DNA from: Allofournierella massiliensis
GTDB lineage: Bacteria; Bacillota; Clostridia; Oscillospirales; Ruminococcaceae
Length of the DNA: 64,000 nt
Assembly: GCA_021531255.1 (NCBI GenBank)
Contig: JAFBIO010000004.1
Reading direction: 5' to 3' (one strand)
The stretch's first letter is position 1, and every line of letters starts with the position of its first letter. The notes beneath the pieces are model-generated. The model had not been told where the DNA came from. It ran no database searches and saw only the letters and a list, made by a program, of their open reading frames with translations. A program made the position numbers and the translations under genes. Shown in pieces: positions 6,688 through 45,927 of this stretch.

Positions 6688-6843
6688 AACGGCTGGAAAA
6701 TTAAAAATTTTCTATAATTTTAACCGCCTTTTATCCCCGCTCTGCTAAACTGAAAATAGAAAATGTGGGGCGGGGAACTCACATCCGTTTCACAAATTTG
6801 GGCGCAGGGTGCGCTCGAAAAAACTAAAAGAGGAGATTATATC

Positions 6844-7515: not shown

Positions 7516-7615
7516 TCAGACAGGAAAACAGTTGTTTTTCTTGTAACCTGATTTAGGCGTGGATCCCGGCAAGGAATATCCCTGCTTTACAAATCCCGAT
7601 TTGTGAGGTAATAAA

Positions 7616-8269: not shown

Positions 8270-8369
8270 CTACTAAATGGCTCCAGAAGCAACCAAAACC
8301 ATATTCAGGCATTTGTGGTAAGGCTTCCTTGTGATTTGTAGAAAATGATCAGGAAAGGAGGGCGGCCGG

Positions 8370-8867
8370 TTGAAAGCAAGGCTGCTAAGCGCTGCGGCTG
8401 CGGCGCTGATTCTGGCCCTCATATTGGCCGCCCTCCCTCTTACCATTCCCAAGCTTTGGGGCTATCAGATCTACAATGTCCTCACCAGCAGTATGACTCC
8501 CGCCTTGCCTCCCGGCAGCGCGATTTATGTCAAAGCTTGTGACGCCCAGGACTTAGAGCCCGGCGACATTATTACCTTTACTCTAAGCAGCAGCACCACT
8601 CTGGTGGAGACCCACCGCGTGGTCGAAAACGACTGGCAGGCCCGGCAGCTCGTTACAAAAGGCGATGCAAATGCCGACGTGGATATCGACCCCGTGGCAT
8701 ATGACCGGGTGGTGGGCAAAGTGGTCTTCAGCATACCAGTTTTAGGCGCCGCTTCCCAGATGATGCGTTCAAGAGGCGGCATCGCGGTTTGCATAGCAAT
8801 ATTTGCCCTGGCATTTATTCTATGGACACTTGCAGACAAGATGAAAAAAAGGGAGAGTTTCAAGTGA
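8370..8867 (+). CDS. sipW: Signal peptidase I, archaeal/ER-type (SipW family) 2
   Basis: TTG start with RBS AAAGGAGG. N-terminal TM, the LTSSMTP serine box, and VETHRVV...TKGDAN motifs. It has a C-terminal TM. Confidence 0.8.
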   Translation: MKARLLSAAAAALILALILAALPLTIPKLWGYQIYNVLTSSMTPALPPGSAIYVKACDAQDLEPGDIITFTLSSSTTLVETHRVVENDWQARQLVTKGDANADVDIDPVAYDRVVGKVVFSIPVLGAASQMMRSRGGIAVCIAIFALAFILWTLADKMKKRESFK

Positions 8868-9553
8868 AAAAGAGATTTTTGCTGATGGGCGCGGCAGCCG
8901 TTCTGGTTATGGCTACAGTGGTAGGCGGCTCCCTGGCCGCAGACCAGGTGAGCGGCGATCAGGCGGTGCAGGCACCTCTTGCCGCAACGAACCTGAGTAT
9001 TGCGCTGGACGGTGCGGCGGAATATCCCATCGAAAGCGCCTGGATGCCCGGTAATACCATTGAACTGAATGGCGAGACCGGCATCTATTCTGTGGAAAAC
9101 ACCGGTACGGGGGATAGTTACATCCGCCTTACCTTATACACATATTGGAGCGACGAAGACGGCGTCAATACCGATTTCGTAGCCACTAATGATCAGGGCG
9201 AGGTTTATCAGCATGTAGCCCAGGTGGAAGTCCCCGCTGAGATGCTGGGCGATGGCTGGGTCAAGGCCGAAGGTGGTCTGCTGGGCCAGTCGGTAGACGG
9301 CAAGCAGGTGTTCTACTACACCAAGCCCTTGGCCACCGGCGAAAGCACCGGCGCTTTGCTCAAGGGGGTAAAACTTCCTGCTTCGCTGAGCAATCAGTAT
9401 GCGGGGCAGCAGATCACCCTGCGGGCAGAAGCGGACGGCGTACAGTTCATCGGCGCGGATTACAACGAGGTGAACGCCGACGGTATCCTTTCTGCCTGGG
9501 GTGTGAAAGCTACCCTGGGTGCGGACGGCAGCATTGCCAAGATCGAAAATTAA
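8864..9553 (+). CDS. TasA/camelysin-like protein 4 (more divergent signal peptide)
   Basis: GTG start overlapping the sipW2 stop. N-terminus VKKRFLLMGAAAVLVMATVVGGSLAADQ. Shared motif FYYTKPLATGESTGALLKGVKLP, paralogous to the other three. Confidence 0.7.
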   Translation: MKKRFLLMGAAAVLVMATVVGGSLAADQVSGDQAVQAPLAATNLSIALDGAAEYPIESAWMPGNTIELNGETGIYSVENTGTGDSYIRLTLYTYWSDEDGVNTDFVATNDQGEVYQHVAQVEVPAEMLGDGWVKAEGGLLGQSVDGKQVFYYTKPLATGESTGALLKGVKLPASLSNQYAGQQITLRAEADGVQFIGADYNEVNADGILSAWGVKATLGADGSIAKIEN

Positions 9554-9581
9554 GCGACAGCGGAAAGACAGGTAAAAGACT

Positions 9582-10313
9582 ATGATGAAAAGAATCAGTG
9601 CCATCGTGCTTGCCCTGAGCGTTTCCGTCGTGCTGGCCCTTGGCTGCTTTGCCGCTGACACCACCGGCACAGCCACCTATGATGGAAGCAAACTCAATGT
9701 GGAAGGCGATATGTCCGGTTTTTCCAGCATGGTGCCCGGGCTGCCCCAGAGCGGCTCTGTCCAGCTGAAAAATGCTTCGGATAAAACCGCCAATTTCTAC
9801 ATGAATACCGATGTGGTCAGTACCCTGATCACCAATTTGGAAGGCGCCACCCAGACCGCCTACACCGTCAGCCTCAGCTGCGGCGATACCGTGTTGTACG
9901 GTTATGACCCGGCTACCGGCGCCACCGGCAGCCTGGTGGGCGGCATGGATACCCAGGGCCTGGAAGAATTGAACGGGGACCTGGAAGGCTACCTGCTGGT
10001 GGCTACCCTGAAACCCGGCGAGACTGCGGATGTGAACTTCTCCATCACCCCGGATGCCCGCAGCACCACCGATTACTACCAGTTCAGTGAAGGTCTGGTG
10101 GAATTCCGCTTCCAGGTTCGGGATGTGGAACCCATTGTGAAGAAAAACACCATCACCAAAGAGGGCGAGGATGTGGTCGTTACCCAGACCCGCTATGTGG
10201 TGGAGGCCGCCAAAACCGGCGATACCAACCTGATCTTTGTGGCTGCCGGCCTGCTGGCCCTGGCTCTGGTGATCCTGGTTGTAACCAAGAAAAAGAAGAA
10301 GGAGGATCAGTGA
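9582..10313 (+). CDS. Cell-wall-anchored surface protein, predicted sortase-B substrate (noncanonical sorting signal AAKTG)
   Basis: Sec signal peptide ...ALGCFA/AD. The C-terminus has AAKTGDTN followed by the hydrophobic segment LIFVAAGLLALALVILVV and a KKKKKEDQ tail. It contains an LKPGETADVNF motif reminiscent of the TasA-like paralogs. Confidence 0.75.
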   Translation: MMKRISAIVLALSVSVVLALGCFAADTTGTATYDGSKLNVEGDMSGFSSMVPGLPQSGSVQLKNASDKTANFYMNTDVVSTLITNLEGATQTAYTVSLSCGDTVLYGYDPATGATGSLVGGMDTQGLEELNGDLEGYLLVATLKPGETADVNFSITPDARSTTDYYQFSEGLVEFRFQVRDVEPIVKKNTITKEGEDVVVTQTRYVVEAAKTGDTNLIFVAAGLLALALVILVVTKKKKKEDQ

Positions 10314-10314
10314 G

Positions 10315-11280
10315 ATGCGTAAGAGCTTTGTAAAACGCCTTGCCTGCGCGGCGCTGGCCCTCTCCATGGCCATGACCATGGCCATCCCCGCCTTTGCCGA
10401 CGAGCAGGGCCGGGTGGTTACCTTCCGCCCCGGCATGGAAGGCTCTGTCTTCAGCGAAGAGTATATTGCGTACATCGAGAACACCGGCTATACATACGAA
10501 GTCAGCCAGGCGACCGGCAGCATTTCGGTGCTGGTGCCCATCGGCAGCCCTGCCCCCAACGCGCCGGATTATACCGATATCATCCCGGGGGATTCCCGCT
10601 ATCAGGTCATTGACCCGGCCGAGGGGTATCAGCAGAATGGCCAGCTGAGCAGCGAGCATGTGACCCAGTACGCCATGAAGCGCCAGGGTGAGGATTACGC
10701 CTACACCGTGGAATACCGGGATCGGGATACCGGCGAGGAAGTAGCTCCCGCTCAGCGCGGCACTTCCAGCGCTGTGACCCTGACCTTCTATGCCCCGGCC
10801 ATTGCCAACTACCGGGCAGAGGCCGAATCGGCTACCCTGACCATTACGGCCGAGGGCCCCAACCTTCTGACCTTCTGGTATGTGGCAGTGCCCATCACCG
10901 AGACCAAGACCGTTACCGCTGATGGGAATACGATCTACCGCTACAATGATGTCACCGTCTACAGCACCGCAGGCGTTGCAGGCGGCGGTGCTGGCGGCGG
11001 CGCAGGAGCCGGCGCAGGAGCCGGCGCTGGTGGCGGAGAAGGCGGCGGTGAGGTCATCAACCCCGATGAGACTCCTCTCACCGGCGGCGAGGCCACCGAG
11101 CCTGAGACCTCCGGTCCCACTGAGGAAATCAACCCGGATGAAACTCCCCAGACCAACGCTCCCGAAGAGGAGAGCAGCGGCCTGAGCCCCATGGTGGGTG
11201 TGGGCATCGGCCTGGTTTTTCTGATCCTGGCGGTGGCCTTCTTCCTCAAGCGCAAAAAGGATAGCGCCGCAGAAGAATAA
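10315..11280 (+). CDS. Cell-wall-anchored surface protein, predicted sortase-B substrate (tandem NPDETPLTGG / NPDETPQTN motifs)
   Basis: Sec signal peptide and a Gly/Ala-rich low-complexity linker. The C-terminus has INPDETPLTGG...INPDETPQTNAPEEE followed by TM GVGIGLVFLILAVAFF and an LKRKK tail. Confidence 0.75.
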   Translation: MRKSFVKRLACAALALSMAMTMAIPAFADEQGRVVTFRPGMEGSVFSEEYIAYIENTGYTYEVSQATGSISVLVPIGSPAPNAPDYTDIIPGDSRYQVIDPAEGYQQNGQLSSEHVTQYAMKRQGEDYAYTVEYRDRDTGEEVAPAQRGTSSAVTLTFYAPAIANYRAEAESATLTITAEGPNLLTFWYVAVPITETKTVTADGNTIYRYNDVTVYSTAGVAGGGAGGGAGAGAGAGAGGGEGGGEVINPDETPLTGGEATEPETSGPTEEINPDETPQTNAPEEESSGLSPMVGVGIGLVFLILAVAFFLKRKKDSAAEE

Positions 11281-11306
11281 GTGGTATCATAACAAGTGAA
11301 TCACGC

Positions 11307-32279: not shown

Positions 32280-33260
32280 TTACCAGTTGGGGTGGACCGA
32301 AGCCCGGATGTACCGGTCATAGATGGCGCGAACGCCCTCCATTTGTTCCGGGCTCAGGGCCGGCAGCTGGGCGGCTTTCACGTTGGCGCGCACCTGTTCC
32401 GGGCGGCTGGCACCGGGGATTACCGCGCTCACCGCCTCCTGCATCAGGATCCAGCGCAGCGCGTAGGGGATCAGATCCTCGGTGCCGAACAGTTTTTTCA
32501 GTTCCGCCACAGCCCGGAGCCCCTGCTCATAGTCCACACCGGAAAAGGTCTCGCCCTTATCAAAGGCCTCGCCGTTCCGGTTATAGCTGCGGTGGTCGTT
32601 TTGGCCGAACCGGGTATCCTTGGTGTACCGGCCGGTGAGCAGGCCGCTGGCAAGGGGCACCCGGGCCAGAATGCTGATCTGCCTTGCCTGGGCTGCCGGG
32701 AACAGTTCCTCGGCGGGTTTGAGGCGGAACATATTGAAGATGACCTCAATGGCCGAGATGGGGTATTCCATAGCCCGGAGGCCCTCGCTGACCTTTTCGA
32801 TGCTCACGCCATAGTGGGCAATCTTGCCCTTTTGCACCAGCTTATCCAGGCCGGCAAACAGCTCGTCCTTCTGATATACGGAAGAGGGCGGGCAGTGCAG
32901 CAGCACCAGATCCAGCTGTTCCATGCCCAGCCGTTCCAGGCTTTGGTCAATAAACCGCTCGGTGTTTTCCGGGGTATAGCCCTCGGCGGTATGGGGGTCC
33001 AGCCCCCGGCCGCATTTTGTCACCACAAAGAAGTGGTCCCGGTGCCGGGCAAGGAATTTCCCAATAGCTCGCTCGCTGCCGCCGTTGTTGTAGATATCGG
33101 CTGTGTCGATCAGGTCGATGCCGCACTCATACCCGGCCTGCAGGATCTCCAGGGCCTTTGCCTCGTCGAAGGGGTCGCCCCAGCGGGCCCCCAGCTGCCA
33201 GGTGCCAAGGCCGATCTCGCTTACCCTGCGCCCGGTTTTGCCAAACATTCTGTGATTCAT
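32280..33260 (-). CDS. Aldo/keto reductase
   Basis: AKR catalytic tetrad context (D...Y...K...H) and GxGTW motif. Confidence 0.85.
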   Translation of the reverse strand: MNHRMFGKTGRRVSEIGLGTWQLGARWGDPFDEAKALEILQAGYECGIDLIDTADIYNNGGSERAIGKFLARHRDHFFVVTKCGRGLDPHTAEGYTPENTERFIDQSLERLGMEQLDLVLLHCPPSSVYQKDELFAGLDKLVQKGKIAHYGVSIEKVSEGLRAMEYPISAIEVIFNMFRLKPAEELFPAAQARQISILARVPLASGLLTGRYTKDTRFGQNDHRSYNRNGEAFDKGETFSGVDYEQGLRAVAELKKLFGTEDLIPYALRWILMQEAVSAVIPGASRPEQVRANVKAAQLPALSPEQMEGVRAIYDRYIRASVHPNW

Positions 33261-33276
33261 GCCATACCTCTTTCTC

Positions 33277-34425
33277 TTATCGCCGGAAGATCTCTCTTGC
33301 CTGCCGCATGTTTTCCCGGATATTCACCCCAAAGGGGCAGTTGGGCTCACAGCGGCCGCACATCAGGCAATCCTCCGCAGTGGCCGGCAGGGACCAATAG
33401 TGTTCCCGCACGGTGTCCGGCACCGTCTTTTGCTGTTTGGCCAGATCCAGGAATTTGGTCACGGCGGCAATATCCAGGTGGGCCGGGCAGGGCTGGCAGT
33501 GGTTGCAGTACATGCACCGGCCCGTCATGGAAACAGAGATGCCGGAAGAAAAGATATGGGCATAGCTGCGCTCCTGGGGGGAGAGCTGCTGATGGCGCAG
33601 GGCTTCCAGCAGTTCCTGGGGGGTGCGGCAGCCCACCAGCACCACCTTTACCCCGCTGCGGTCCAGGCAGTACTGGATGCACTGGGGCACGATCATGGCC
33701 ACCCCAAAGGGAGAGCTTTCCGCCTTCAGCAGGGTGCCCGCCCCCAGCGCTTTCATGACGGTGATGGCCACGCCCCGGTTCTCACAGGCCGAGTACAGCT
33801 TTTGCCGGGCCTCGTCGGCCACCAGGCCGCTCCGTTCCATCCCCTTGAATTCCATCAGGGCCTCGATGTCGGTGTCGGGGGCCTCCATATCATAAGCCGG
33901 ATTGATGCTGAACATCAGCACATCAATCCAGCCGCTTTCCACCGCTTTCAGGGCCACCTGGGGATTGTGGGAACTCATGCCGATATGGCGGAGGATCCCC
34001 TTTGCCTTGAGTTCCCGGGCATATTCCAGCACCGGGCCGCCCAGCACCCCGTCCAGATCCTCTTGGCTGTCCACATAGTGGATCATGCCCACATCGATAT
34101 AATCGGTCTGCAGCCGATTCAGCAGATCCTCAAAGGAGCGGCGGGTCTTTTCGATATCCCGGGTCCGGGTATACTGGCCATCCTCATACACGGTACACAG
34201 ATGCCCTTGAATGATGAATTTTTCCCGGCGGCCCCTCAGCGCATTGCCCAGGTGCTGCCGGGTGGGGGCCTGGGGCATGAAGATATCCAGGTAGTTGACG
34301 CCGTTTTCCTCCGCCGTATCCAAAATGGCCGTGCTATCTTCCTGCGACAGCCCGTTGAACCATTCGCCACCCAAACCGATCTCGCTCACCCTGAGCCCGG
34401 TGCGGCCCAATATTCTGTACTGCAT
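33277..34425 (-). CDS. Aldo/keto reductase fused to a C-terminal 4Fe-4S ferredoxin domain
   Basis: N-terminal AKR domain followed by CMYCNHCQPCP and CLMCGRCEPNCP cluster motifs. Confidence 0.8.
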   Translation of the reverse strand: MQYRILGRTGLRVSEIGLGGEWFNGLSQEDSTAILDTAEENGVNYLDIFMPQAPTRQHLGNALRGRREKFIIQGHLCTVYEDGQYTRTRDIEKTRRSFEDLLNRLQTDYIDVGMIHYVDSQEDLDGVLGGPVLEYARELKAKGILRHIGMSSHNPQVALKAVESGWIDVLMFSINPAYDMEAPDTDIEALMEFKGMERSGLVADEARQKLYSACENRGVAITVMKALGAGTLLKAESSPFGVAMIVPQCIQYCLDRSGVKVVLVGCRTPQELLEALRHQQLSPQERSYAHIFSSGISVSMTGRCMYCNHCQPCPAHLDIAAVTKFLDLAKQQKTVPDTVREHYWSLPATAEDCLMCGRCEPNCPFGVNIRENMRQAREIFRR

Positions 34426-34574
34426 GAAATTCTCCTGTGCCCCAAAGGGGCGGTCCTTGTATAAATGACGAATTTAAGTATAATGGCATTATATAGAACA
34501 ACCAAAAGAGGGGCAAGTACGCATATTTTTTTCAGAAGGTGAAGAAAAGTTCACCAAGGAGAGGGCGAAACCCG

Positions 34575-34937
34575 ATGGAAAAGATCCTGGTTACCTGTGA
34601 GATGGAGGTTACCCTGAAGATGATCGGCGGCAAGTGCAAGCCGCTGATTTTAGACAGCCTGATCCGTCACGGCACCCAGCGGTTCAGCCAGCTGATGCGC
34701 CGGCTCAGCCAGGTATCCCAGCGCACCCTCACAAATCAGCTGCGGGAACTGGAAGCGGACGGGCTGATCAGCCGGACCGTTTATGCCCAGGTCCCCCTCA
34801 AGGTGGAATACAGCATCACCGAAAAGGGCCGTTCGCTGGCCCAGATTCTGGAACTCATGTGCGAATGGGGCGAAAAGAATATGGATGAAAGGTTTGAACT
34901 CACCGACCCGCAATGTACCGGCCAGGAAGAAGAATAA
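34575..34937 (+). CDS. HxlR family (winged-helix) transcriptional regulator
   Basis: RBS AAGGAGAGG. HxlR signature (CKPLILDSLIRHGTQRFSQLMRRLSQVSQRTLTNQLRELEADGLISR). Divergent from the AKR genes. Confidence 0.8.
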   Translation: MEKILVTCEMEVTLKMIGGKCKPLILDSLIRHGTQRFSQLMRRLSQVSQRTLTNQLRELEADGLISRTVYAQVPLKVEYSITEKGRSLAQILELMCEWGEKNMDERFELTDPQCTGQEEE

Positions 34938-34968
34938 GCCGAACTCCCAGCCCATTAACCCAAAACCA

Positions 34969-35012
34969 AAGGCAGCCGCCTCCCTTTTCGGGGAGGCCGG
35001 CTGCCTTCTGTA
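34969..35012. terminator. Bidirectional terminator
   Basis: ggcagccgcctccc-tttt-cggggaggccggctgcc hairpin followed by a T-rich run. Confidence 0.75.
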
Positions 35013-35025: not shown

Positions 35026-35745
35026 TTACAGTCCCTGGCGGCGAAGAGCCCGGTCCACCCGGCGGAAATCCCCCACCGCCTTCAGCCCGATGCGGAAGAT
35101 GCGGGCCAGATTCAGGCTGTTGACGCCCCCCTGCCGGGGCAGAAAACTCACCGGCAAAGAGAGCACCGGCAGGTCCATCCGGGCGGCAAAAGCCGCAATG
35201 AGCACGTTGGGCAGGAAGAAATTCTCCGGAATGAGTTCCAGGCACCGGGCAAGGAAGTCCCGCTTCATCAGCCGGTAGGGGGTGTTGGGGTCGGCCGTAT
35301 AGGCCCGCAGAAAGAACAGGGTGACATATTTCAGCACCTTGGTCACCACCCAGCGGGAAAAGCCGTCCCCCCGGTGCACCCGCCGGCCGATCACCAGGTC
35401 ATAACCGGCCCGCTGTTCCCAGAAAGGGGCGAATTCCTCCGGCAGGGTCTGGCCGTCCGAATCGGTCTGAAAGATATAGTCGGCCCCCTGTTCCAGGGCA
35501 TAGCGGTAACCAAACAGGCAGGCTGACCCGTGGCCCCCGTTGGGCTTGGTCAGGGGGATCAGGGCGGGCAGTTCCCGGGCCAGGGCCTCCAGCTTTTGGG
35601 CGGTGCCGTCCCGGCTGCCGTCGTTCACCACCACCAGCCGGGCTTCGGGGCCGGTCTGGCAGGCTACCTGGTGCCACTGGCGCACTACTTTTTCGATATT
35701 GGCTTCCTCATTGTAAGCCGGAATCACGATATAGAGTTTCTCCAA
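35026..35745 (-). CDS. GT2 family glycosyltransferase (polyprenyl-phosphate sugar synthase, DPM1-like)
   Basis: IVIPAYNEE and VVNDGSRDGT motifs plus a DxD-type motif. Probable TTG start (MEKLYIVIP) 6 nt after GGAGGA; the two upstream ATGs lack usable RBS spacing. Confidence 0.75.
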   Translation of the reverse strand: MEKLYIVIPAYNEEANIEKVVRQWHQVACQTGPEARLVVVNDGSRDGTAQKLEALARELPALIPLTKPNGGHGSACLFGYRYALEQGADYIFQTDSDGQTLPEEFAPFWEQRAGYDLVIGRRVHRGDGFSRWVVTKVLKYVTLFFLRAYTADPNTPYRLMKRDFLARCLELIPENFFLPNVLIAAFAARMDLPVLSLPVSFLPRQGGVNSLNLARIFRIGLKAVGDFRRVDRALRRQGL

Positions 35746-35785
35746 AACCATTCCTCCCATGGGGCCCTTGGCCCGGCGACGGCAT

Positions 35786-38005
35786 TCAGTTCAGGCAGAG
35801 CAGCAGATATTCCCCAAAATCCAGCTGTTGGCTGCGCAGGGAGATCAGGGCTTCCAGGTCCAGGGATGGGTAGCTCTCCCGCTCCCGGGGACCTACCACG
35901 ATATAATCCACCCCATAAGCTTCGATCACGGCCCGGGCGGCCTCTTCGCCATCCTCATAAAGGGCGCGGACCTCGTCGCCCCGGGCATCCACCCCGGCCA
36001 GGTCGCTGCGCCACAGCCATTCATGGGTGTGCCAGCCCACGATGGTGGCCCGGCCGGTGGCCATGCTGATCCGGCAGTACTGGGTGTAGCTGGCCCCCGG
36101 GGCCTCCACCACCACCGCGTCCGGGGCGGCGTTCTCGTCGATCCACCGGATCAGGGCCGCCTCGTTGGGGGCCTCCTGCTCAATAAAGGCCAGCCCATCC
36201 AGCCCCTGGTACTCCCGCCCCCAGTAGGTGCTCTTCAGGGCAAGGGGGGTATAGCAGAGGGGGATGGCCAGGCAGCAAACCAGGGCCAGACGGCGCAGCA
36301 GTCGTCGGGGTCGCCGCTGGCCGGCCGCCGCGGCCCACCAGCGGGCCAGGCTGTAGCCCATGGCTAGGCCAAAGAGGATGAAGGCCTGGTAGGTGAGCTT
36401 GAACATGGTGTTGGCCCGGGGCGCCGAGGGGTATATATCCTTCAGATAGAGCAGCTCCGGCCCGATCAGCAGCCCCAGGCCGCACAGGTAGCAGAAAAAC
36501 ACAAACAGGTCGGGCAGATCAAAGCTGTTCAGCCAGCGGGAAAAACCGTTCTCCCGGCCAGGCAGCGCCCCCCGGGCGGGAACTTCGTAGAGGACCTGCC
36601 AGCCTTCCTCTTCCTCCAGGGGGCCGAAGGGCCAGCGGCCCAGCCGGCGGCGTTCGGTGAAAAACAGGAAGATCAGGTAGGCCGCAAAACAGCCCAGAGG
36701 CAGATACCACAGGGCCAGGAACTGGGGCAGCGGGCTGGATTGGGCCACCAGACCAATGCCGGCGCTCATGGAATCAAAGGAGAGGCTGAAGGGCAGGGAA
36801 GAGAGGGAGCGCAGGGCCAGCAGGAGGGCCAGCCGCAGGGCGCCCTCTGCCCAGAAGGACTTCTGACCGGGCGCGCAGCGCATCCCCGCCGCCCAGAAAA
36901 CGAAAAAGACCGAGACGATGGTGTAGATGGCAAAATCCCAGTAGTTGGTCATGGCCATGACCCCGAGGAAAAAGCCGCAGAGCCAGAAGGCCGGGTCCGC
37001 CAGAGATTCCCACAGGGGGGTCTGCCGGCTGGCATTCTGCCGGGCCCGGCTCAGCCAGACAAGGCTCAGAGCCAGGAAGAGCAGCACAAAGCAGATATCC
37101 AGCACATGGGCGTGCAGGTCGCTGACAATAAAGGAATAGAAGGGGAATTCATGGATGGTGTTGTCGGTGCTGCCCTCATAGCAGTTGATGAATCGGGTGG
37201 CGTCCGGATACCAGTAATTTTCGGCGTAATCCACCAAGCCCAGCCGGTTTAAAAAGGGCAGCAGCACCCCGAACAGAAAGGCGTGGCCATTGCCGCCCAC
37301 CGCCACCAGAAGGGAACAGGCCGCCCCGCCGGCGGCGCAGCCCCGGCCCTTAAAGCCCTTGAGCCCCAGCAGGTCATAGCCCAGGGCGCCGGCCAGGCTC
37401 AGGGTCAGTGCAAAGGTGGTGGCCATCATCAGGTTATAGCCCACGGCGCTGCCCACCCCCGCCAGCCGGCAGAGGAAAGCGGTGGCAAAATGGCCGTAAT
37501 AATAGTAGTTGATCCCCTTACCGGCATACCACATGTCGGCGGCGGGCATCCAGTCGCTGTTCAGGATGCTGGCCACAAAGCCGTGATCCATAAATTTTTC
37601 CAGATCCCGCAGGTCCGGGTTGGTGGCCCGCAGCCAGGCCCAGAAGGCCAGGGCGGCCAGAAAAATAACCTCCTCCACCAGGGCGCGCCGCCAGAAAGTA
37701 CCGCTGCCCAGGGCCGTCTGCCAGACAGACCCAGCCCTGCGCCGGCGAAGGAAAGCAGGGAACCAGCAGGCCAGAGCCGCCGCCCCCAAAAAGAGCCAGC
37801 AGCCCCATACCCGGAAGGGGACGAGATGAAAGGAAGAGGAGGTAAAGGAAAGCCAGGAGCAAAGGGCCAGCCCCAACACCTTGGAAAAGGCCCAGCCTTT
37901 ATCCCGCAGCCCTCCAAAGACCGAGAGGGTCAGGGGCAGCAGGGCCATGCTCAGCAGCAGAAGAACGGCCCACCAGCGGGCCAGCGCCAGGAAATCGGAA
38001 ATCAT
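35786..38005 (-). CDS. DUF2298 'chlor_Arch_YYY' integral membrane protein (putative GT-C-like glycosyltransferase)
   Basis: 739 aa, polytopic N-terminal half with the diagnostic GINYYYYGHF motif, then a large extracytoplasmic C-terminal domain. Confidence 0.75.
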   Translation of the reverse strand: MISDFLALARWWAVLLLLSMALLPLTLSVFGGLRDKGWAFSKVLGLALCSWLSFTSSSFHLVPFRVWGCWLFLGAAALACWFPAFLRRRRAGSVWQTALGSGTFWRRALVEEVIFLAALAFWAWLRATNPDLRDLEKFMDHGFVASILNSDWMPAADMWYAGKGINYYYYGHFATAFLCRLAGVGSAVGYNLMMATTFALTLSLAGALGYDLLGLKGFKGRGCAAGGAACSLLVAVGGNGHAFLFGVLLPFLNRLGLVDYAENYWYPDATRFINCYEGSTDNTIHEFPFYSFIVSDLHAHVLDICFVLLFLALSLVWLSRARQNASRQTPLWESLADPAFWLCGFFLGVMAMTNYWDFAIYTIVSVFFVFWAAGMRCAPGQKSFWAEGALRLALLLALRSLSSLPFSLSFDSMSAGIGLVAQSSPLPQFLALWYLPLGCFAAYLIFLFFTERRRLGRWPFGPLEEEEGWQVLYEVPARGALPGRENGFSRWLNSFDLPDLFVFFCYLCGLGLLIGPELLYLKDIYPSAPRANTMFKLTYQAFILFGLAMGYSLARWWAAAAGQRRPRRLLRRLALVCCLAIPLCYTPLALKSTYWGREYQGLDGLAFIEQEAPNEAALIRWIDENAAPDAVVVEAPGASYTQYCRISMATGRATIVGWHTHEWLWRSDLAGVDARGDEVRALYEDGEEAARAVIEAYGVDYIVVGPRERESYPSLDLEALISLRSQQLDFGEYLLLCLN

Positions 38006-38026
38006 GGAAGATCCTTTCGTGCAAGA

Positions 38027-40096
38027 TCAGCGGATTTGATAGACGGTGGTTCCTTCGTCCTGATACACCACCGGCAGGGCCTGACGGAGGACCTCCTCGC
38101 CCCCGGCCTCAAAGAAGGCGGAAAAGCGCTCATCTCCGATAAGGGTGCTGTCTACCAGCAGGTAATCAGCCCCGGTATTCCGGGCAGCCTGGGCAAAGGC
38201 CCCCGGATCCCGGCAGGCAAACAGTTTTTCCAGTACCTGATCCCGCCCGGTGGTGTCATACCCGGCGGACCAGGCATAGTAGGGCCAGCCCTGGTAGGCC
38301 AGCCGCCCCGTGGTGAATACCGGGTGGATGGTGATGTAGCCGGTGATGAAAACCGAGCCGGTGGGGGTCTCCTCCCGGATCCAATTGGTGAGGGCGCTCT
38401 GTTTCTGAATCCGCACCGGGGTGGAGCGGCAGAGATTGGAATAGGTGATCCCGTCTTCCAGGCCGGTGATGGTGAGCAGCACCGCCGCGGCCAGGGCCGC
38501 CCCCCGGCGGGTCAGGCGCCGGCTTTTCCAGAGGATGGTCAGCAGCCAGCCGTTCAGGATGCCCCCTAGAATCAGGCTGAGCATCACCTGCTTGTGGCCC
38601 ACCGCGATATCGGGGGTCATCTGCAGAGTAAAAGCCTGGACCAGGGGCAGCAGGCAGCTGAGGAAAAAGACCCTTGCCGCCCCCCGGCCCTTGCCGCCGC
38701 CGGCCCAGATCAGCCCGGCCAGAAAGAGGGGGAAAAAGATCCCGGTAAGGAGCAGCAGATATTCCGCCAGATCCCCGGCCGAGCCGGAGGGGGCCAGAAA
38801 ACCCAGATGGATCTGGAGAGAAATGGGAGAAGCCCCTTTGGTGAAAAAGGCGGATTGCAGGCTGGAAAGGGCCATGGCCGGCAGGGCGGCAAAGAGATAG
38901 GTCAGCCGGGCCCGGCTGAAGATTCCCATCCCGGCCAGGATCAGCAGGGCGCTGATGACCATGGAGCCATGCCAGAAGGCGGCAGCCCCCAAAAGCAGGC
39001 CGGCCGGCAGCCCCCAGAAAATGGCGGGGCTGGGGGCCCAGCCCTCCCGGGCAAAAAGGAAAGCAGAGGGTCCTCGGCTCAGGGTCTCCACCCCCTCCTG
39101 CAGCAGGGGCAGAAAGAGCAGCAGGGCCAGCAGCACCAGGCAGACCCCCAGGGAGAGATGCCGCTGGTTGGCCCACACATTCTGGTTGAAAAGGCCCCAG
39201 TCCTCATGGGCGGTGGTGCCGATAAAGGTCTTATTGTTCAAAAACCAGCCGAGCCAGCCGGTATTCTCCGGCTTTTGGGCCAGAAAGCTGAAAAAGGCAA
39301 AGGAACTGCGGAAAAACAGAAAAACAAGGCTCAAAAACGCCGCCCCCCGGCTGCCGGTAAGGGCATGGGCCAGGGTGAACAGGAGCAGCATCATGCTGAG
39401 AAAACTCAGCAGACTGGGCAGGTTGAGGGCCCAGGTGAGGGGCAGGCCCAGATATTCCAGCAGCCCGGCGGCAAACAGGAAGAGAAAATGATAGCGGATG
39501 GTGCCGTCGGCAAAATGGGGGTATTGGGTAGGGAAATTCTCACCCAGAGAAAAGCTGCGGATCACCGCAATATGGGGTGAAAAATCCGAGTAGATGTTCA
39601 CCGCCATGGAGATGGAGGAAGCATCCTCCCAAAAGCTGTAAAAGCTGACAAAAAGCCCGGCAGCCAGGCTGAACACCAGGGCAAGGGCCTGCCAGTGGCC
39701 AAAATCCCCGGCAAAAAAGCAGGCAACAGAGGGGCCCGGGCGGCGGGTGGCCTTTTCCAGCCGGCCGTCCCGCCAGACGGCCCCCGACCCTGCCCGGCGG
39801 CGAAGGGTCAGCAGCCCCGCCCCGGTCAAAAGCAGGCCGGCCGCCAGCGCGGCCCCTGCCCCGAAGGCCATGGGCCGGCCGGTATCCCGGGCCAGCCAGG
39901 CGCTCAGATAGGCCACCCAGCCCAGCAGGATATAGCCCAGGCAGAAGCCGGCGGGCAGCACCAGAAAGGGGCGGTAGAGGGGAACTTCCTGCCCCTGCAG
40001 GCTGCGCAGAGCCGAGAAGAAAAGGGTGGGGAAAAAGAGGCGGAGCAGTAAACACCCCGCCCCAAAAGATAGGATCAGATAGAGCAAAGCCAGCAC
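38027..40096 (-). CDS. PMT_2/ArnT-like (GT-C fold) membrane glycosyltransferase
   Basis: 689 aa with more than 12 TMs, then a C-terminal soluble domain. The architecture matches dolichyl/undecaprenyl-phosphate-sugar dependent mannosyltransferases (GT39/GT83-like). Confidence 0.65.
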   Translation of the reverse strand: MLALLYLILSFGAGCLLLRLFFPTLFFSALRSLQGQEVPLYRPFLVLPAGFCLGYILLGWVAYLSAWLARDTGRPMAFGAGAALAAGLLLTGAGLLTLRRRAGSGAVWRDGRLEKATRRPGPSVACFFAGDFGHWQALALVFSLAAGLFVSFYSFWEDASSISMAVNIYSDFSPHIAVIRSFSLGENFPTQYPHFADGTIRYHFLFLFAAGLLEYLGLPLTWALNLPSLLSFLSMMLLLFTLAHALTGSRGAAFLSLVFLFFRSSFAFFSFLAQKPENTGWLGWFLNNKTFIGTTAHEDWGLFNQNVWANQRHLSLGVCLVLLALLLFLPLLQEGVETLSRGPSAFLFAREGWAPSPAIFWGLPAGLLLGAAAFWHGSMVISALLILAGMGIFSRARLTYLFAALPAMALSSLQSAFFTKGASPISLQIHLGFLAPSGSAGDLAEYLLLLTGIFFPLFLAGLIWAGGGKGRGAARVFFLSCLLPLVQAFTLQMTPDIAVGHKQVMLSLILGGILNGWLLTILWKSRRLTRRGAALAAAVLLTITGLEDGITYSNLCRSTPVRIQKQSALTNWIREETPTGSVFITGYITIHPVFTTGRLAYQGWPYYAWSAGYDTTGRDQVLEKLFACRDPGAFAQAARNTGADYLLVDSTLIGDERFSAFFEAGGEEVLRQALPVVYQDEGTTVYQIR

Positions 40097-40110
40097 GGCC
40101 GGGTCTCCTT

Positions 40111-41046
40111 TCAGCGGGGGTCGACGGGAAGAAGGGCGTCGGTATCCTCCTGTACCAGATAGCGGGGCCGGCCCTTGACCTCTTCATAGATCTTGCCGAT
40201 GTACAGCCCGATCACGCTCAGGGCCAGCATCAGGCCGCTGCCGATGAAAAGCTGCAGCAGGATCACGGTGGAAAAACCGGTCTGAGCCTGATGAGAAAAA
40301 TACATCCAGAGGGTCTGCACCGTCAAAACGGCGGCGGCCGCCAGCATCACCAGCCCCATCACCCCCACCAGCAGAAGGGGAGCGGCGGTATAGGCGATGA
40401 TGGAATCCACAAAAAGGCGGAGCAGGGCGGAAAAACGCCATTTGGTGCGGCCCTGGCGGCGGGGCTCCACCTCAAAGGGCATCTGGCAGCGGGCAAAGCC
40501 CAGCCAGGCGCTCATGCCCCGGAAATAGGTATCCCGTTCGGGCAGCTGCTTCCAGGCTTCCAGGGCCCGGCGGCTGAGAAGCTTGAAATCCGAGAGGGGC
40601 TGCTGGCTCAGCCCGGTGAGCCGGCCAAAAAGCCGGTAATACAGGGCGGCGCCCCAGCGGCGGAAAAACGGTTCCCGGCCCCGGTGGGCCTTGACCCCGT
40701 CCACGATCTCATAGCCCTGCTGCCACAGTTCCACCATCCGGGGCAGGTAGCGGGGCGGATGCTGCAGGTCGGCATCCATCACGATTACCGCGTCCCCGCC
40801 GGCCCTTTCCAACCCGGCACAGAGGGCAGCCTCCTTGCCGAAATTCCGGCTCAGCCGCACCAGGCGCAGCCCGGGCAGTTCCTGCCTGGCCAAAAGGAGC
40901 TGCTGCCAGGTATCATCGGTGCTGCCGTCATCCACCAAAAGATAGGAATGGGGGATGTCGGCTTCACCCAGCACCTGTTCCACCTGGGACAGGGTCTGCC
41001 GGATCGAGGCTCCTTCATTGTATACAGGCATCAGAATGGTGACCAT
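40111..41046 (-). CDS. GT2 family glycosyltransferase (polyprenyl-phosphate sugar synthase, ArnC/GtrB-like) with C-terminal TMs
   Basis: RBS AGAGGAGAA then ATG (MVTILMPVYNEG). DDGSTD and DADLQHPP motifs. Two C-terminal TMs, typical of GtrB/ArnC. Confidence 0.8.
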   Translation of the reverse strand: MVTILMPVYNEGASIRQTLSQVEQVLGEADIPHSYLLVDDGSTDDTWQQLLLARQELPGLRLVRLSRNFGKEAALCAGLERAGGDAVIVMDADLQHPPRYLPRMVELWQQGYEIVDGVKAHRGREPFFRRWGAALYYRLFGRLTGLSQQPLSDFKLLSRRALEAWKQLPERDTYFRGMSAWLGFARCQMPFEVEPRRQGRTKWRFSALLRLFVDSIIAYTAAPLLLVGVMGLVMLAAAAVLTVQTLWMYFSHQAQTGFSTVILLQLFIGSGLMLALSVIGLYIGKIYEEVKGRPRYLVQEDTDALLPVDPR

Positions 41047-41216
41047 GGGGGCGGTTCTCCTCTGCAAAGACATACATCAAATATTATAGCACAGCCATGC
41101 CAGCCCCGAAAGGCAAAGGGGGATTTTTACGGCAAAAAAGGCAAAAAACAACCGAAAATAGCATAAAAAAGCCCCGGCCGGATCTTCCCGGTCAGGGCGT
41201 AAGGGGCTGTAAAAGT

Positions 41217-42452
41217 TCAGGGTGCGGGGTGCCAGGTGCCGCTGTCGGGCAGGCTGAAGGAAGCGTCGCCCGCCATGTGGAGAGAATGTCGGATGGAAAC
41301 GCCCCAGGCGGAATCCTCCCGGTAGTTTTTCTCGATACGCTTGTCCACAATGGCGCAGTTTTCCCGGTTGGTGCCGATGAGCAGCACCAAAAAGCGATCC
41401 CGCCCGTGCTGGGTATAGGCATCGCCCCGGCGCAGGCTGCGGCCGATGGCGGCTTTCAGTTTCTGGGCGGCAGCGGCGATCTTTTCCGGGTCCTCCAGCA
41501 GGCGGCCCCGGCTGTCGCACAGCCAGTACATGAGCAGGTAGGCGCTCTGGCCGCTGCGCTCCATCATCCGGCAGCACATCCGGTATACATCAATAAAGCT
41601 GGGGTAGCTGCAGTAGTAAGCGCCGCTCTGGCGCTGGGGTTCCTGGATATGGTCGGTGATCTCGGCCACCGTTTCGGTATTTTCCTGGCCGGCCAGGCTC
41701 AGCTGACGGAACCGTTTGACCAGCTCATCACTGGGCTTTACGTCAAATTCCTCGCTCAGCTCATGTACGGCCTGGTCGTATACTTGCTTAGCCTCGTTGT
41801 ACCGTTCCAGGGCCATCAGGCAATCGATCCGCAGGCACTGCCATTCTTCCATATGGTACAAAGCAGCGGTGCGGGTGGCCAGTTCCAGCAGGGCCTCCCA
41901 CTCGTTTCGCTTGCTCAGCAGTTCGGCCAGGGTCCGCACACAGGAAAAATACCCTTGCCGCAGCTGGGCGGCGGCAATCACCGCCCAGTCGGACCCCATC
42001 AGATGGGGCAGAAAATCCCCGGTATACAGCTGGGCAGCCTGCCTGAGATGGGTCAGCTTGTCATTTTCGCCCCGGCAGGCTTTGGCCTTGGCCAGTTCCT
42101 CTTCAAAACAGCGCACATCCAGCACCACCGGCAGTTCGCTGCAGAAGAAATAGCTGCCGGTTTTATAGCGGATGGTCACGCTTTCGGGCAGACCCGCCCG
42201 CGCCAGCAGCCGGCGCAGGTTGCTGATGGTCACCTTCAGGTTATTGGCCGGGTCGGCGGCAGTATCGTCCGCATACAGGATATCCATCAGCCGTTCCCGG
42301 GAGATACCATCCGGAAAACGGTAGAGGAGGACCTGCAGAGCCTGCATGGCCTTGGTGCTGTTGGTCCGCTCCAAATGCAGGACATTGCCTTGGTACGACA
42401 GGGAGAAATCGCTCAGCATCCGGACCGCAATCACTTCCGGCGGCAGATTCAT
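41217..42452 (-). CDS. SARP/BTAD family transcriptional regulator with degenerate C-terminal GGDEF-like domain
   Basis: N-terminal winged-helix plus BTAD domain (LERYNEAKQVYDQAVHELSEEFDVKPSDEL). The C-terminal about 150 aa resemble a GGDEF fold but with RDRF in place of GG(D/E)EF. Upstream promoter TTGACG-17-TATGAT. Confidence 0.65.
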   Translation of the reverse strand: MNLPPEVIAVRMLSDFSLSYQGNVLHLERTNSTKAMQALQVLLYRFPDGISRERLMDILYADDTAADPANNLKVTISNLRRLLARAGLPESVTIRYKTGSYFFCSELPVVLDVRCFEEELAKAKACRGENDKLTHLRQAAQLYTGDFLPHLMGSDWAVIAAAQLRQGYFSCVRTLAELLSKRNEWEALLELATRTAALYHMEEWQCLRIDCLMALERYNEAKQVYDQAVHELSEEFDVKPSDELVKRFRQLSLAGQENTETVAEITDHIQEPQRQSGAYYCSYPSFIDVYRMCCRMMERSGQSAYLLMYWLCDSRGRLLEDPEKIAAAAQKLKAAIGRSLRRGDAYTQHGRDRFLVLLIGTNRENCAIVDKRIEKNYREDSAWGVSIRHSLHMAGDASFSLPDSGTWHPAP

Positions 42453-42994: not shown

Positions 42995-43555
42995 ATGACC
43001 GAGACATTTGAGACTCTGCTGTGCACCCACAGTGCCCCCGTGCTGGCGGGGCTGCGGCCTTCCGGCACCGTCACCTGTCATCGGGAGAAACTGCCTTTTT
43101 TGGAACAGGACCTGGCCGAATGCCGCCGGCTGCTGCTGGAGCATGGCCTGCGCTGCCGGGTACTCTGCCAGTGCGAGAGGCACTTGGTGCTGATGATCTA
43201 CGATCCGGTATGGCTGGAAGCCTGCCTGATCGGCCGCCGGGCCCGGAAAATGCTGCGGCAGCTGGGCTACCCGAAGGATGCGCTGGTGGAAGAACTGCTG
43301 GAAGAGCTGGGGCACAGGATGGCCCGGCAGGGCTTTCCCCATGAGATTGGGCTCTTTCTGGGATATCCCGCCCGGGATGTGGAAGAATTCATCCGCCGGG
43401 GCGGGCTGGGCAGCATCTGTACCGGATACTGGAAGGTATACCGCCATCCCGGAGAGGCCCGGCGCTGTTTTGCCCGGTACGATGCCTGCCGGGAAGATTT
43501 CCTGGCCCGGCAAAGCCAGGGACAGAGCTTGCGGCAGATCCTGCGGGCAGGCTGA
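42995..43555 (+). CDS. DUF3793 family protein
   Basis: RBS GGAGAAACC then ATG. Conserved Cys-rich hypothetical family. Confidence 0.6.
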   Translation: MTETFETLLCTHSAPVLAGLRPSGTVTCHREKLPFLEQDLAECRRLLLEHGLRCRVLCQCERHLVLMIYDPVWLEACLIGRRARKMLRQLGYPKDALVEELLEELGHRMARQGFPHEIGLFLGYPARDVEEFIRRGGLGSICTGYWKVYRHPGEARRCFARYDACREDFLARQSQGQSLRQILRAG

Positions 43556-43779: not shown

Positions 43780-45927
43780 TCAGCCCTCCAGGATGCTCAG
43801 CACTGCTTCGGCCACTGCGCCGCCCTCGGCCCAAAGGCCTGCCTCATCGGTGCAGCGCTCATATTCCAGGGCAGTGGTTACAAATCCGCTTTCCAGCAGA
43901 ACCGCCGGGCAGGCGGTGGTGCGGGTGACAAAATAGTAGTCCTCCCGGGCGCCCCGGTTGTTGCAGCCGAAGGCGGCCGCAAAACGGCTGGTAAGGGCCG
44001 CGGCCAGATCTTCGCTCTGGGGGGTGAACCAGTAGCACTCGGTGCCGTTTACATCCAGGGTATCCCGGGTCAGGGCAATGCTGTTGTGGTGCAGGCTGAT
44101 GAAGAAATCCGGCGCCTGAGAATTCACCATCTCCAGTCTCTGGGCCAGGCTCAGATAGCTGTCGTCCGACCGGGTCAGGCTGACCCAGGCGCCCAGCTGC
44201 TCCAGCCGGGCCTTGGCGGCCAGGGTCAGGGCCAGGTTCAGATCCTTTTCCAGAGGGCCGTCGGTGCCGGCACAGCCGCTGGCGCCGTTATCCTCACCGC
44301 CGTGGCCCGCGTCCAGCAGGATGCGCACCCCCTCCAGAGGGGCGTCCGGGTTATCGCTGAGCCGGGGCGTTTTCTTGAGCAGGATCTCCACCCCGTCCTG
44401 GCCATAGCGCACCGTATAGCCCCAGAGAGACTCCTCTTCCCCAAAGGCAAAGCGAAGGGTAAAGCCGGCGGGGGATTCGTCCTCCCCCTCGGCGGGCGGG
44501 ATCTCTCCCACCTCCACCGCTGTAGCCATCTCGCCGCTCTGGAGCGCCGTGCCGGCAAAAGCGGCATCGTAGAAGGTCAGGGTCAGGCTGCCGTCCTCGC
44601 CCCGCTCTGCCAGATACAGGGGCGTGCCGGAGCCCTCCAGCCGCCAGAATTCGCCGGCATCGCTCTGGATGACCGAAAGGCCGGTGAAGGAGGCCTCGGC
44701 AGCGGCCGGGTCGTCCTCTTCCAGCAATTCCACATCAGAGGCCCGCAGCCAGCCGCCGTTTTGCAGCTGGTAGGCCCAGGTGATTTTGGAAGAGCTCACA
44801 TATTCCTCGCTGTCCACTACCCGGGCCATGGCCCCGTTGGGGATGGCGCCAAGAATGGTGGAGGAATCCTCATAATCTGCCAGCAAGCTGGCAATGCCGT
44901 CCGCCGTCACCCGCAGCCATTGGCCCGGCTCGGCCTCCACGCTGCCGTCGCTTTCCGGCTCGGCGGGGGTCCAGTTCGAGGAGGTCTTGTAGGTGACCGT
45001 CACCGTCTGGGAAAAATCCCCCTGGGTGAGGGTAAAGGTGTTTTCTCCCTCGGCAAGGCTCACCGCCTTGGTCCAGACGCCCTTGCTGCCCGGCCGGTCC
45101 ACCGGCTGGCCGTTGAGCAGCACCTCGCTGTCCGGGTCGCTGGTGCCGGTGAGGCAGAGGGTATCATAATAGGTAGAAAAATCATCGGAAGGGTAGCAGA
45201 TGGCGGTCTGCTGGGAAAGGGTGGTATCCGGCAGGGTCTCGGTCCCCTCCTGATAGGCGGCCAGCCGCCGGGCAGGGGAGGGGTCCTGGGAGAGATCGCT
45301 CCACCGGCCCAGCACGCCGCCGGTGCCGGTCTGCCGCAGGGCTGCCAGGCTGGCGGGGCTTACCTCATCCAGCAGGGTCAGGTCTTTTCCGTCGGTATAG
45401 GGCACCGCCCCTTTCAGGGTGGTGGAAAAATCCTCGGCCTGGCCGGCAAACAATACGGTGGGGGAACTCTTTTCGGCCAGTTTCAGGGCCCATTCGGGGG
45501 CGTCTTCCCGGGCAAGGGGATTGCCCTCTTGATTGGTGGCCAGCAGGTAAAAGGCAATGCCGGCCTTGGCACACTGTTTTTTCAGCCGGCTCACCGGGTC
45601 GGTGCCGTCCAGTTCCGGCGCCAGGGCCAGGGAGTCGGTCTTATCCTCAAAAAGGGCGTATTCCCCGTACCGGCCGCTCAGCAAAACACCGGTGCAGCCC
45701 CAGGCCTCGGCCTGTACCGGCACCGCATCCAGAAAATCCAGCTGGTCGGAGATATCCGAACAGGCCAGAAGCTGTTCGGTCCAGCCTTCATCCAGCACCA
45801 GCACCACCGGGGCCTTGACCCGGGCGGCGGGGGGAGAGAAGAAGAGGGCAAAGAGAAAACCGGTCAGAAAAATCAGGATCAGCAAGAAGATCACACAGAG
45901 GAAAAAGGGGAATGTGCGTCGTTTCAT
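43780..45927 (-). CDS. N-acetylmuramoyl-L-alanine amidase (Amidase_3) with N-terminal GHL10-like domain and signal anchor
   Basis: The C-terminus has ILLDAGHGG...D...SLHHNS...E (Amidase_3 zinc ligands). The N-terminal region resembles the YngK/GHL10 hydrolase-like family. RBS AAGGAG. Confidence 0.8.
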   Translation of the reverse strand: MKRRTFPFFLCVIFLLILIFLTGFLFALFFSPPAARVKAPVVLVLDEGWTEQLLACSDISDQLDFLDAVPVQAEAWGCTGVLLSGRYGEYALFEDKTDSLALAPELDGTDPVSRLKKQCAKAGIAFYLLATNQEGNPLAREDAPEWALKLAEKSSPTVLFAGQAEDFSTTLKGAVPYTDGKDLTLLDEVSPASLAALRQTGTGGVLGRWSDLSQDPSPARRLAAYQEGTETLPDTTLSQQTAICYPSDDFSTYYDTLCLTGTSDPDSEVLLNGQPVDRPGSKGVWTKAVSLAEGENTFTLTQGDFSQTVTVTYKTSSNWTPAEPESDGSVEAEPGQWLRVTADGIASLLADYEDSSTILGAIPNGAMARVVDSEEYVSSSKITWAYQLQNGGWLRASDVELLEEDDPAAAEASFTGLSVIQSDAGEFWRLEGSGTPLYLAERGEDGSLTLTFYDAAFAGTALQSGEMATAVEVGEIPPAEGEDESPAGFTLRFAFGEEESLWGYTVRYGQDGVEILLKKTPRLSDNPDAPLEGVRILLDAGHGGEDNGASGCAGTDGPLEKDLNLALTLAAKARLEQLGAWVSLTRSDDSYLSLAQRLEMVNSQAPDFFISLHHNSIALTRDTLDVNGTECYWFTPQSEDLAAALTSRFAAAFGCNNRGAREDYYFVTRTTACPAVLLESGFVTTALEYERCTDEAGLWAEGGAVAEAVLSILEG

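Follow-up and report, generated by a model that had tools for sequence, protein, structure and literature searches.

Extracytoplasmic glycosylation by GT-C glycosyltransferases that use lipid-phosphate-linked sugars is a known process. In the Gtr systems of Shigella and Salmonella, GtrB makes undecaprenyl-phosphate-glucose, GtrA flips it and a GT-C enzyme (Gtr*) uses it outside, and CsbB, YfhO and GtcA are the Gram-positive counterparts. Other described systems are the Pgf operon of Streptococcus mutans (PgfS, PgfM1, PgfE, PgfM2) and the mycobacterial arabinan pathway dependent on decaprenylphosphoryl-arabinose, to which AftA (GT85) belongs. Here we describe a four-gene operon, G1 to G4, in a 64,000-nucleotide stretch of DNA from Allofournierella (Fournierella) massiliensis (assembly GCA_021531255.1, contig JAFBIO010000004.1), hereafter the window. 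A preliminary description of the window had proposed that these genes make lipid-linked sugar donors and transfer the sugars at the membrane's outer face. This logic agrees with the matches of G1 and G4, the GT-C-fold models of G2 and G3, and the Gtr-like contexts in relatives, whereas the PMT_2/ArnT label given to G2 does not stand and the suggested S-layer or TasA-like targets found no support.

The likeness to the Gtr systems lies in a GtrB homologue, G1, encoded directly upstream of a predicted GT-C-fold protein, and in the predicted logic of lipid-phosphate-monosaccharide synthesis, flipping and transfer outside. Some relatives carry a true GtrA beside G1 and G2. Yet this operon lacks GtrA (PF04138), has two GT2 and two GT-C proteins instead of one of each, and its GT-C proteins fall in the DUF2298 superfamily, with a C-terminal periplasmic domain, rather than in the Gtr* or YfhO families. 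Pgf, too, is a Firmicute operon of four genes, among them those for a PgfS-like GT2 and a paralogous pair of GT-C proteins, and PgfS is the top NCBIfam match of G1. This match is under the equivalog cutoff, PgfM1 and PgfM2 are of the YfhO family, which G2 and G3 do not match, and our operon has a second GT2 in place of an epimerase; orthology with Pgf or YfhO is thus ruled out. AftA is only 12-13% identical to G2 and G3, with no sequence-level relationship. Its pathway and the pentofuranose three-component systems (GT136, PMC11127046) also differ in that the operon encodes GT2 donor synthases, not a UbiA-type phosphoribosyl pyrophosphate transferase, and in that the window lacks glf, the gene that in relatives precedes G4 and G3 in a UDP-galactofuranose-dependent module. 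The operon is not a member of the PMT/ArnT systems, and we found no characterised pathway to which the four-gene cluster maps.

Two predicted donor synthases

All four minus-strand open reading frames of the preliminary description are present at the sizes it gave (Table 1). They lie head to tail, with intergenic gaps of 14, 21 and 25 nt, and their third-codon-position GC of 0.78-0.81 is like that of other genes in the window. By its sequence signals, this tightly packed set is a single operon with its own predicted promoter and terminator.

The first gene had been described as a GtrB/ArnC-like GT2, and this assignment is confirmed. G1 matches PF00535 in a Pfam search (3.9e-29) and aligns with GtrB (PDB 5EKP) over residues 10-309, i.e. 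its full length, at 2e-64; further PDB matches are ArnC (4e-41) and DPMS (9e-19). Its top NCBIfam matches, PgfS (2.4e-66, 224 bits vs a cutoff of 500) and ArnC (3.5e-45), are both under the equivalog cutoffs. The protein has the motif DADLQHPP and two hydrophobic segments (234-252 and 270-288) that correspond to two C-terminal transmembrane (TM) helices. It thus has the GT-A domain, the DxD(LQ) motif, the C-terminal helices and the full-length GtrB homology of GtrB/ArnC/DPMS-type GT2 proteins, and we predict it to be a polyprenyl-phosphate hexose(-amine) synthase.

G4, likewise a GT2 as described earlier (PF00535, 6e-20), has the GT-A domain and DxD motif of the same type but no TM helix. In NCBIfam and the PDB alike, it is matched best by polyprenyl-phosphate sugar synthases exclusively (ArnC, GtrB, DPMS, PgfS and PpgS), with scores of 7.8e-13 for ArnC (residues 7-222), 1e-9 for GtrB and 2.8e-8 for DPMS, and there is a weak match to GlfT1 (1.2e-5). 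G4 is therefore predicted to be a second polyprenyl-phosphate sugar synthase.

Two membrane proteins with a predicted GT-C fold

The assignment of the 739-aa protein G3 to DUF2298 is unambiguous at the level of family models. It scores 338.6 bits with PF10060 (9.6e-101; cutoff 27.8), and with TIGR03662 it reaches 509.8 bits where 300.25 is required; being above both curated cutoffs makes it a full-length member of the DUF2298/Chlor_Arch_YYY family. The GINYYYYGHF motif pointed out earlier is at residues 164-173 (NYYYYG at 166-171). G3 is identical to WP_235256873.1, annotated "DUF2298 domain-containing protein", and G2 to WP_235256875.1, annotated "hypothetical protein". The preliminary description called DUF2298 functionally uncharacterised, and we too found no functional study of DUF2298, Chlor_Arch_YYY or PF10060 in the literature, where papers on a "YYY domain" concern unrelated sensor domains. 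A search for archaeal AglS as a possible DUF2298 protein likewise gave nothing but unrelated papers.

G2 is a different case. It has no match to any Pfam or NCBIfam model, and neither DUF2298 model captures it. The PMT, PMT_2 and DUF2298 models match none of 48 family members (G2 and 47 relatives), even at E<=1, which rules out the membership in PMT_2/ArnT (PF13231, PF02366; GT39/GT83) proposed earlier. Instead, comparison of the G2-family profile with the DUF2298-family profile (hhalign) gave a probability of 99% and an E-value of 2.2e-18 over 591 columns, essentially the full length. The alignment sets SDFxPH...NFPTQYPHF...IRYHF of G2 against EKFMDxGF...INYYYYG of G3, so that RYHF replaces the YYY motif, and five polar residues are kept in both families (G2/G3: D171/D140, Y202/Y167, H313/H300, D496/D523 and K502/K536). 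Since this homology emerges only by profile-profile comparison, G2 lies outside the DUF2298 family proper, and its profile identifies it as a remote, divergent paralogue, a superfamily relative rather than a family member.

The G2 family is large. Among 1.84 billion representatives, it has 1,566 clusters (50% identity) at E<=1e-30 and 2,967 at E<=1e-10, and tblastn confirmed relatives at 539 places in GTDB species genomes. These are mostly from Lachnospiraceae and other Clostridia, with few elsewhere: Betaproteobacteria (Deefgea, Chitinolyticbacter), Methyloglobulus and Anaerolineaceae. The 99 homologues detected for G2 are all "hypothetical" and have no Pfam domain except for one Dpy19 match and some C-terminal NHL/beta-propeller fusions. 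The fusion proteins reach ~1000 aa and carry SGL or YncE-like domains, and an Acidobacteria metagenome-assembled genome encodes a 1328-aa PMT_2-DUF2298 fusion (L087:1-3816). In such fusions there may be a hint of how acceptors are bound or of GT-C enzymes working together.

Neither protein has a relative in the PDB at the level of sequence or profile, and only fold comparison was informative. AlphaFold2 models built from 48-sequence alignments were of high confidence (pLDDT 90.2 and pTM 0.92 for G2; 90.6 and 0.93 for G3), and both match solved GT-C enzymes. The model of G2 scores 20.7 with ALG12, 18.4 with STT3B, 18.1 with AftA (469 aligned residues) and 17.7 with AglB, followed by ArnT (16.0), Pmt4 (15.6), AftD (15.1) and PglB (14.6). 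For G3 the scores are 14.5 with AftA (484 aligned residues), 13.7 with ALG12, 13.5 with Pmt2, 13.2 with ArnT and 12.2 with AglB. For either protein no structure aligns over more residues than AftA, which for G3 also has the top score, and a Foldseek search with G3 also returned AftA first (E 6.8e-8), then AglB, STT3 and PglB, with PMTs far weaker. In these models both proteins have the polytopic core fold of the GT-C superfamily, and both appear structurally closer to AftA and to STT3/AglB-type enzymes with a C-terminal periplasmic domain than to PMT or ArnT.

The likeness may extend to the putative active site. In AftA, two additional TM helices at the N-terminus lie outside the GT-C core, the C-terminal domain is periplasmic and of alpha/beta type, and two crossed helices form the first long extracytoplasmic loop, on which the catalytic Asp128 is found (PMC10265970). 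G2 and G3 share this layout: after additional N-terminal helices come a strongly basic loop, then a TM helix and a long two-helix loop; they end in a soluble domain of ~130 aa (G2) and in an AglB-like globular domain (G3). The basic loop should be cytoplasmic under the positive-inside rule, and therefore the next long loop should be outside. This predicted first long outer loop carries D171 in G2 (in SDFxPH; invariant) and D140 in G3 (in EKFMDxGF; at least 90% of the family), and in G3 also GINYYYYGHF and the invariant E136 and D157. By helix parity, the C-terminal domain and the remaining conserved polar residues should also face outwards. By analogy of position with AftA Asp128, D171 and D140 are the putative catalytic aspartates.

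Gene neighbourhoods, mechanism and alternatives

To place the operon among its relatives, we annotated the open reading frames of the 80 species loci anchored on G2 that were most similar to the query, using custom hidden Markov models for the four proteins. All four genes are present in 29 of the 53 loci having enough flank on both sides. DUF2298 occurs at most 5 kb downstream of G2 in 46/56 loci, and a G1-type GT2 is immediately 5' of G2 in 44/72, usually with an overlap of 4-7 nt. The dominant order in Clostridia is G1-G2-glf-G4-G3, where glf encodes UDP-galactopyranose mutase (PF03275, 3.6e-79; TIGR00031, 385.9 bits vs a cutoff of 303.75). This gene is found in 30 of 41 loci with G4 and in none of the 15 without it, always in the order glf-G4-G3 (Fisher p 4.8e-7, for loci that are not phylogenetically independent). 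In eleven loci G4 is the sole GT2 beside G2 and G3. A rare order, G1-G2-G3-G4 without glf, is seen in the window and in its close relatives. In Lachnospiraceae the module is located between recG and rsmD/coaD, a housekeeping neighbourhood, which speaks for a core function in the envelope and against a variable surface island.

The contexts of DUF2298 in other phyla likewise point to lipid-linked donors. A proteobacterial-type contig has the order DUF2298-DUF2298-GtrA-GT2-G2, and in loci of this type a single GtrB-like GT2 is beside three DUF2298-superfamily genes. The Acidobacteria genome mentioned above encodes, in order, the PMT_2-DUF2298 fusion, a G4 orthologue (34% full-length identity), a Glf-like flavoprotein and a DUF2298 protein. 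In Candidatus Shapirobacteria, a gap of 3 nt separates DUF2298 from an upstream UbiA-family gene, for whose product the top match is decaprenyl-phosphate phosphoribosyltransferase (2.5e-57, under cutoff). Elsewhere DUF2298 adjoins a flippase-like TIGR00374 protein and a PRK07233 flavoprotein, and in other monoderm-like contigs its neighbours are PMT, PMT_2, GT4, LCP and FemAB.

Two further arrangements recur near these genes. One is a triad in which a GT2 is combined with a flippase-like protein (TIGR00374/LPG_synthase_TM) and an FAD/NAD(P) flavoprotein of PRK07233 type (L084:12104-15565; L089:2676-5011); the flavoprotein could be a mutase or a lipid-sugar oxidoreductase. The other, in 16 loci, is a ~445-aa protein 3' of DUF2298 that joins a YkuD L,D-transpeptidase domain to a Bact_surface_Ig-like domain (L016:15436-16827 and 15 other Lachnospiraceae loci; L082:16440-17777), a further peptidoglycan-related neighbour of DUF2298.

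We propose that the operon glycosylates a cell-envelope acceptor outside the cytoplasmic membrane from polyprenyl-phosphate-linked monosaccharides, and give this reading a probability of roughly 0.7. At the cytoplasmic face, G1 and the short, membrane-peripheral G4 would each move a sugar from a nucleotide sugar onto undecaprenyl phosphate. A flippase encoded outside the operon would carry the lipid-phosphate-sugars across the membrane, and the paralogous G2 and G3 would pass the sugars to the acceptor at the outer face, with D171 and D140 as catalytic base and the C-terminal periplasmic domain covering the active site, as in AftA and AglB. The reading is built on the genes present and their operon structure, on homology and synteny, and on the predicted folds and conserved residues, from which we infer donor identity, pairing, catalytic residues, acceptor and flippase. 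In particular, the use of polyprenyl-phosphate donors by G2 and G3 is suggested by the linkage of such genes to GtrB-like, GtrA, flippase-like and decaprenyl-phosphate-phosphoribose (DPPR) synthase-like genes.

In relatives, G1 overlaps G2 and glf, G4 and G3 form a block, which suggests that donor synthases and transferases work in two pairs, G1/G2 and G4/G3. The earlier idea that two GT2 genes mean two sugars gains support from the same linkages, though it is not proven for the window. In most relatives, the block is most simply explained if G4 and G3 are fed by UDP-galactopyranose mutase and use a lipid-linked galactofuranose (Galf) donor. The likeness of the models to AftA, whose donor is lipid-linked arabinofuranose, fits a furanose donor without proving it. 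We found no description of a lipid-linked Galf donor in the literature. Galf-containing O-glycans of cellulosome linkers were considered as a product and dropped as speculation, the literature giving nothing usable.

These elements can be joined into a broader scheme, which we put forward tentatively and regard as more probably wrong than right in its entirety. The DUF2298 superfamily, including the G2 family, would be an unrecognised GT-C clade using polyprenyl-phosphate-furanose donors. In Clostridia, Glf and G4 would make undecaprenyl-phosphate-galactofuranose, from which DUF2298 would transfer Galf outside, and bacteria of the candidate phyla radiation would use a DPPR-synthase-like UbiA protein instead of Glf and G4. 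The operon studied here would be a glf-less or trans-supplied version, possibly with a G2-G3 heterodimer like Pmt1-Pmt2 or EmbA-EmbB.

Several points weigh against our proposal or parts of it. We found no biochemical evidence for any DUF2298-superfamily protein. The catalytic aspartates were assigned by conservation and topology, not by residue-level superposition. The 80 loci behind the synteny counts are those with the highest similarity to the query, and they are phylogenetically non-independent. There is no glf anywhere in the 64-kb window, so the galactofuranose inference cannot pass directly to this organism. Neither the operon nor the window yielded a GtrA-like or other flippase candidate (tblastn with the GtrA of L084; no small open reading frame with four TM helices). 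The single GT2 with several GT-C proteins in some loci implies that the G1-G2/G4-G3 pairing is not obligatory. Finally, the TM-less G4 could be a conventional cytoplasmic GT2.

The nature of the acceptor is where the strongest alternative arises. We consider a cell-wall glycopolymer or lipoglycan somewhat more likely than proteins, because the fold is AftA-like, LCP and FemAB occur among the contexts and the location is a housekeeping one. The same machinery might nevertheless glycosylate proteins, in a Pgf/PMT-like O-glycosylation that decorates Ser/Thr-rich regions of secreted or membrane-anchored proteins, and we see this as a minority possibility to be taken seriously. The AglB-like C-terminal domain, the analogy with Pgf and the NHL fusions keep it alive, whereas G1 reaches less than half of the PgfS equivalog cutoff and there is neither a YfhO-family GT-C nor a PgfE epimerase. 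Moreover, AftA, the closest structural relative by alignment length for both proteins and by score for G3, acts on a polysaccharide, DUF2298 adjoins the cell-wall genes LCP and FemAB in other lineages, and no gene for a Ser/Thr-rich target is linked to the operon.

Another possibility, which we find unlikely, concerns the second donor: G1 alone would make a lipid-phosphate-sugar, serving both GT-C proteins, and G4 would be an ordinary cytoplasmic GT2 that uses a nucleotide sugar directly to extend an intermediate, either lipid-linked or soluble, by one sugar (in relatives, Galf). This would account for the lack of TM helices in G4, for its weak match to GlfT1 and for the proteobacterial-type loci that pair one GtrB-like GT2 with three DUF2298-superfamily genes. 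Yet TM-less polyprenyl-phosphate synthases exist, for example PpgS and human DPM1, the best PDB and NCBIfam matches of G4 are all to polyprenyl-phosphate synthases, and the alignment with ArnC extends past the GT-A core. The loci with G4 as sole GT2 beside G2 and G3, and the Acidobacteria orthologue wedged between two DUF2298 genes, also speak for G4 as a donor synthase.

It is very unlikely that G2, G3 or both act like oligosaccharyltransferases or ligases, transferring en bloc a glycan preassembled on a polyprenyl-diphosphate carrier. Their structural likeness to STT3, AglB and PglB includes the C-terminal domain, and G3 has a faint NCBIfam match to archaeo_STT3 (0.008), but they lack a conserved WWDxG-type motif, their partners are GtrB-type monosaccharide synthases, and neither the operon nor its conserved relatives include an initiating phosphoglycosyltransferase, a Wzx/PglK-type flippase or further assembly glycosyltransferases. 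Least credible of all is that G2 and G3 are non-enzymatic GT-C-shaped scaffolds or transporters like PIG-U/GAB1, given the acidic, His and Lys residues that are invariant on the outer loops across both families and the tight linkage to sugar-donor synthesis genes across phyla.

The locus and what it may mean

The operon signals are listed in Table 1. The promoter element TGCTATAAT is in the 143-nt gap between the operon and the upstream gene for a BTAD/Trans_reg_C protein, and an 81%-identical relative (L001) has it at the equivalent position. The ribosome-binding site GGAGAA is also kept there, and the gene call of that relative starts at the equivalent ATG. Because of this conservation, the true start of G1 is most likely ATG 41046, giving 311 aa rather than 320. 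The upstream ATG 41073 is only ~7 nt from the -10 element and probably within the 5' untranslated region. At the other end, the terminator hairpin separates G4 from the convergent HxlR gene and is common to both (a terminator scan reports 34968-35009 on both strands). The BTAD/Trans_reg_C gene holds the equivalent position upstream of the operon in L001, and by its location its product is a candidate regulator. A terminator 3' of this gene is possible at most, the fold there being no better than that of shuffled sequence (z = -1.0).

Table 1. Genes and predicted signals of the operon and its upstream regulator
Feature	Position	Strand	Size	Description
G1	40111-41073	-	320 aa as longest open reading frame	GT2, GtrB/ArnC/PgfS-like
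G2	38027-40096	-	689 aa	Polytopic membrane protein, predicted GT-C fold, unmodelled family
G3	35786-38005	-	739 aa	DUF2298/Chlor_Arch_YYY, predicted GT-C fold
G4	35026-35760	-	244 aa	TM-less GT2, DSDGQ motif, amphipathic C-terminus
Extended -10 promoter element TGCTATAAT	41083-41091	-		Read from sequence; function inferred
Ribosome-binding site GGAGAA	41055-41060	-		8 nt 5' of ATG 41046
Intrinsic terminator	34961-35007	-		17-bp GC-rich stem, CGAAAA loop, T-rich tail; ends operon
BTAD/Trans_reg_C (SARP-like) regulator	41217-42452	-		PF03704 5.7e-15, PF00486 3e-5

Between G4 and a copper P-type ATPase gene, positions 32280-34937 encode an HxlR regulator (plus strand), an aldo-keto reductase-4Fe-4S fusion and a second aldo-keto reductase. 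These three genes are missing from L001, where G4 directly precedes the ATPase, and the segment is a recent insertion or deletion beside the operon. On the upstream side, a DUF3793 gene (42995-43555) and a nearby gene for a 715-aa N-acetylmuramoyl-L-alanine amidase (43780-45927) both keep their position beside the operon in L001. The N-terminal 535 aa of the amidase match no Pfam family and are 16% Ser+Thr.

Further away, positions 1300-11300 of the window have a GC content of 0.52-0.55, vs ~0.61 elsewhere. Within this stretch, positions 7616-8269 encode a camelysin/TasA-like protein and 8370-8867 a SipW-like S26 signal peptidase; an LPXTG-anchored protein is encoded at 9582-10313, and at 1883-5569 a surface protein of 1228 aa (Listeria-Bacteroides-repeat/SpaA-fold). 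The stretch also has several small paralogous open reading frames without Pfam match, and may be an island for fibres or pili that was acquired horizontally. The preliminary description had named the TasA-like fibres, or an S-layer, as possible targets of glycosylation, for which we found no support. The TasA-like locus is ~27 kb from the operon, in a compositionally distinct region and without physical or comparative linkage to it, and the conserved neighbours of the operon in relatives are housekeeping genes.

Some of our results could have been anticipated: a specialist would expect a GT-C fold for a polytopic protein of unknown function encoded beside GtrB. Not well known are the families to which these enzymes belong, the architecture of two pairs and the possible use of a furanose donor, and what is new is the paralogy of G2 and DUF2298, the breadth of the unnamed G2 family and the strict linkage with glf. 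Extracytoplasmic glycosylation from lipid-phosphate-sugars shapes phage receptors, immune recognition and envelope integrity, yet the enzymes responsible are essentially unknown in abundant gut Clostridia such as Lachnospiraceae and Oscillospiraceae. Our analysis gives DUF2298, without a function since its definition, a testable one, and identifies an unmodelled sister family. From the strict linkage of glf, G4 and DUF2298 we predict a lipid-linked galactofuranose donor, new biochemistry if true, and one that, Galf being absent from mammals, might then offer a selective target. Since Fournierella massiliensis is cultured, these predictions are directly testable.

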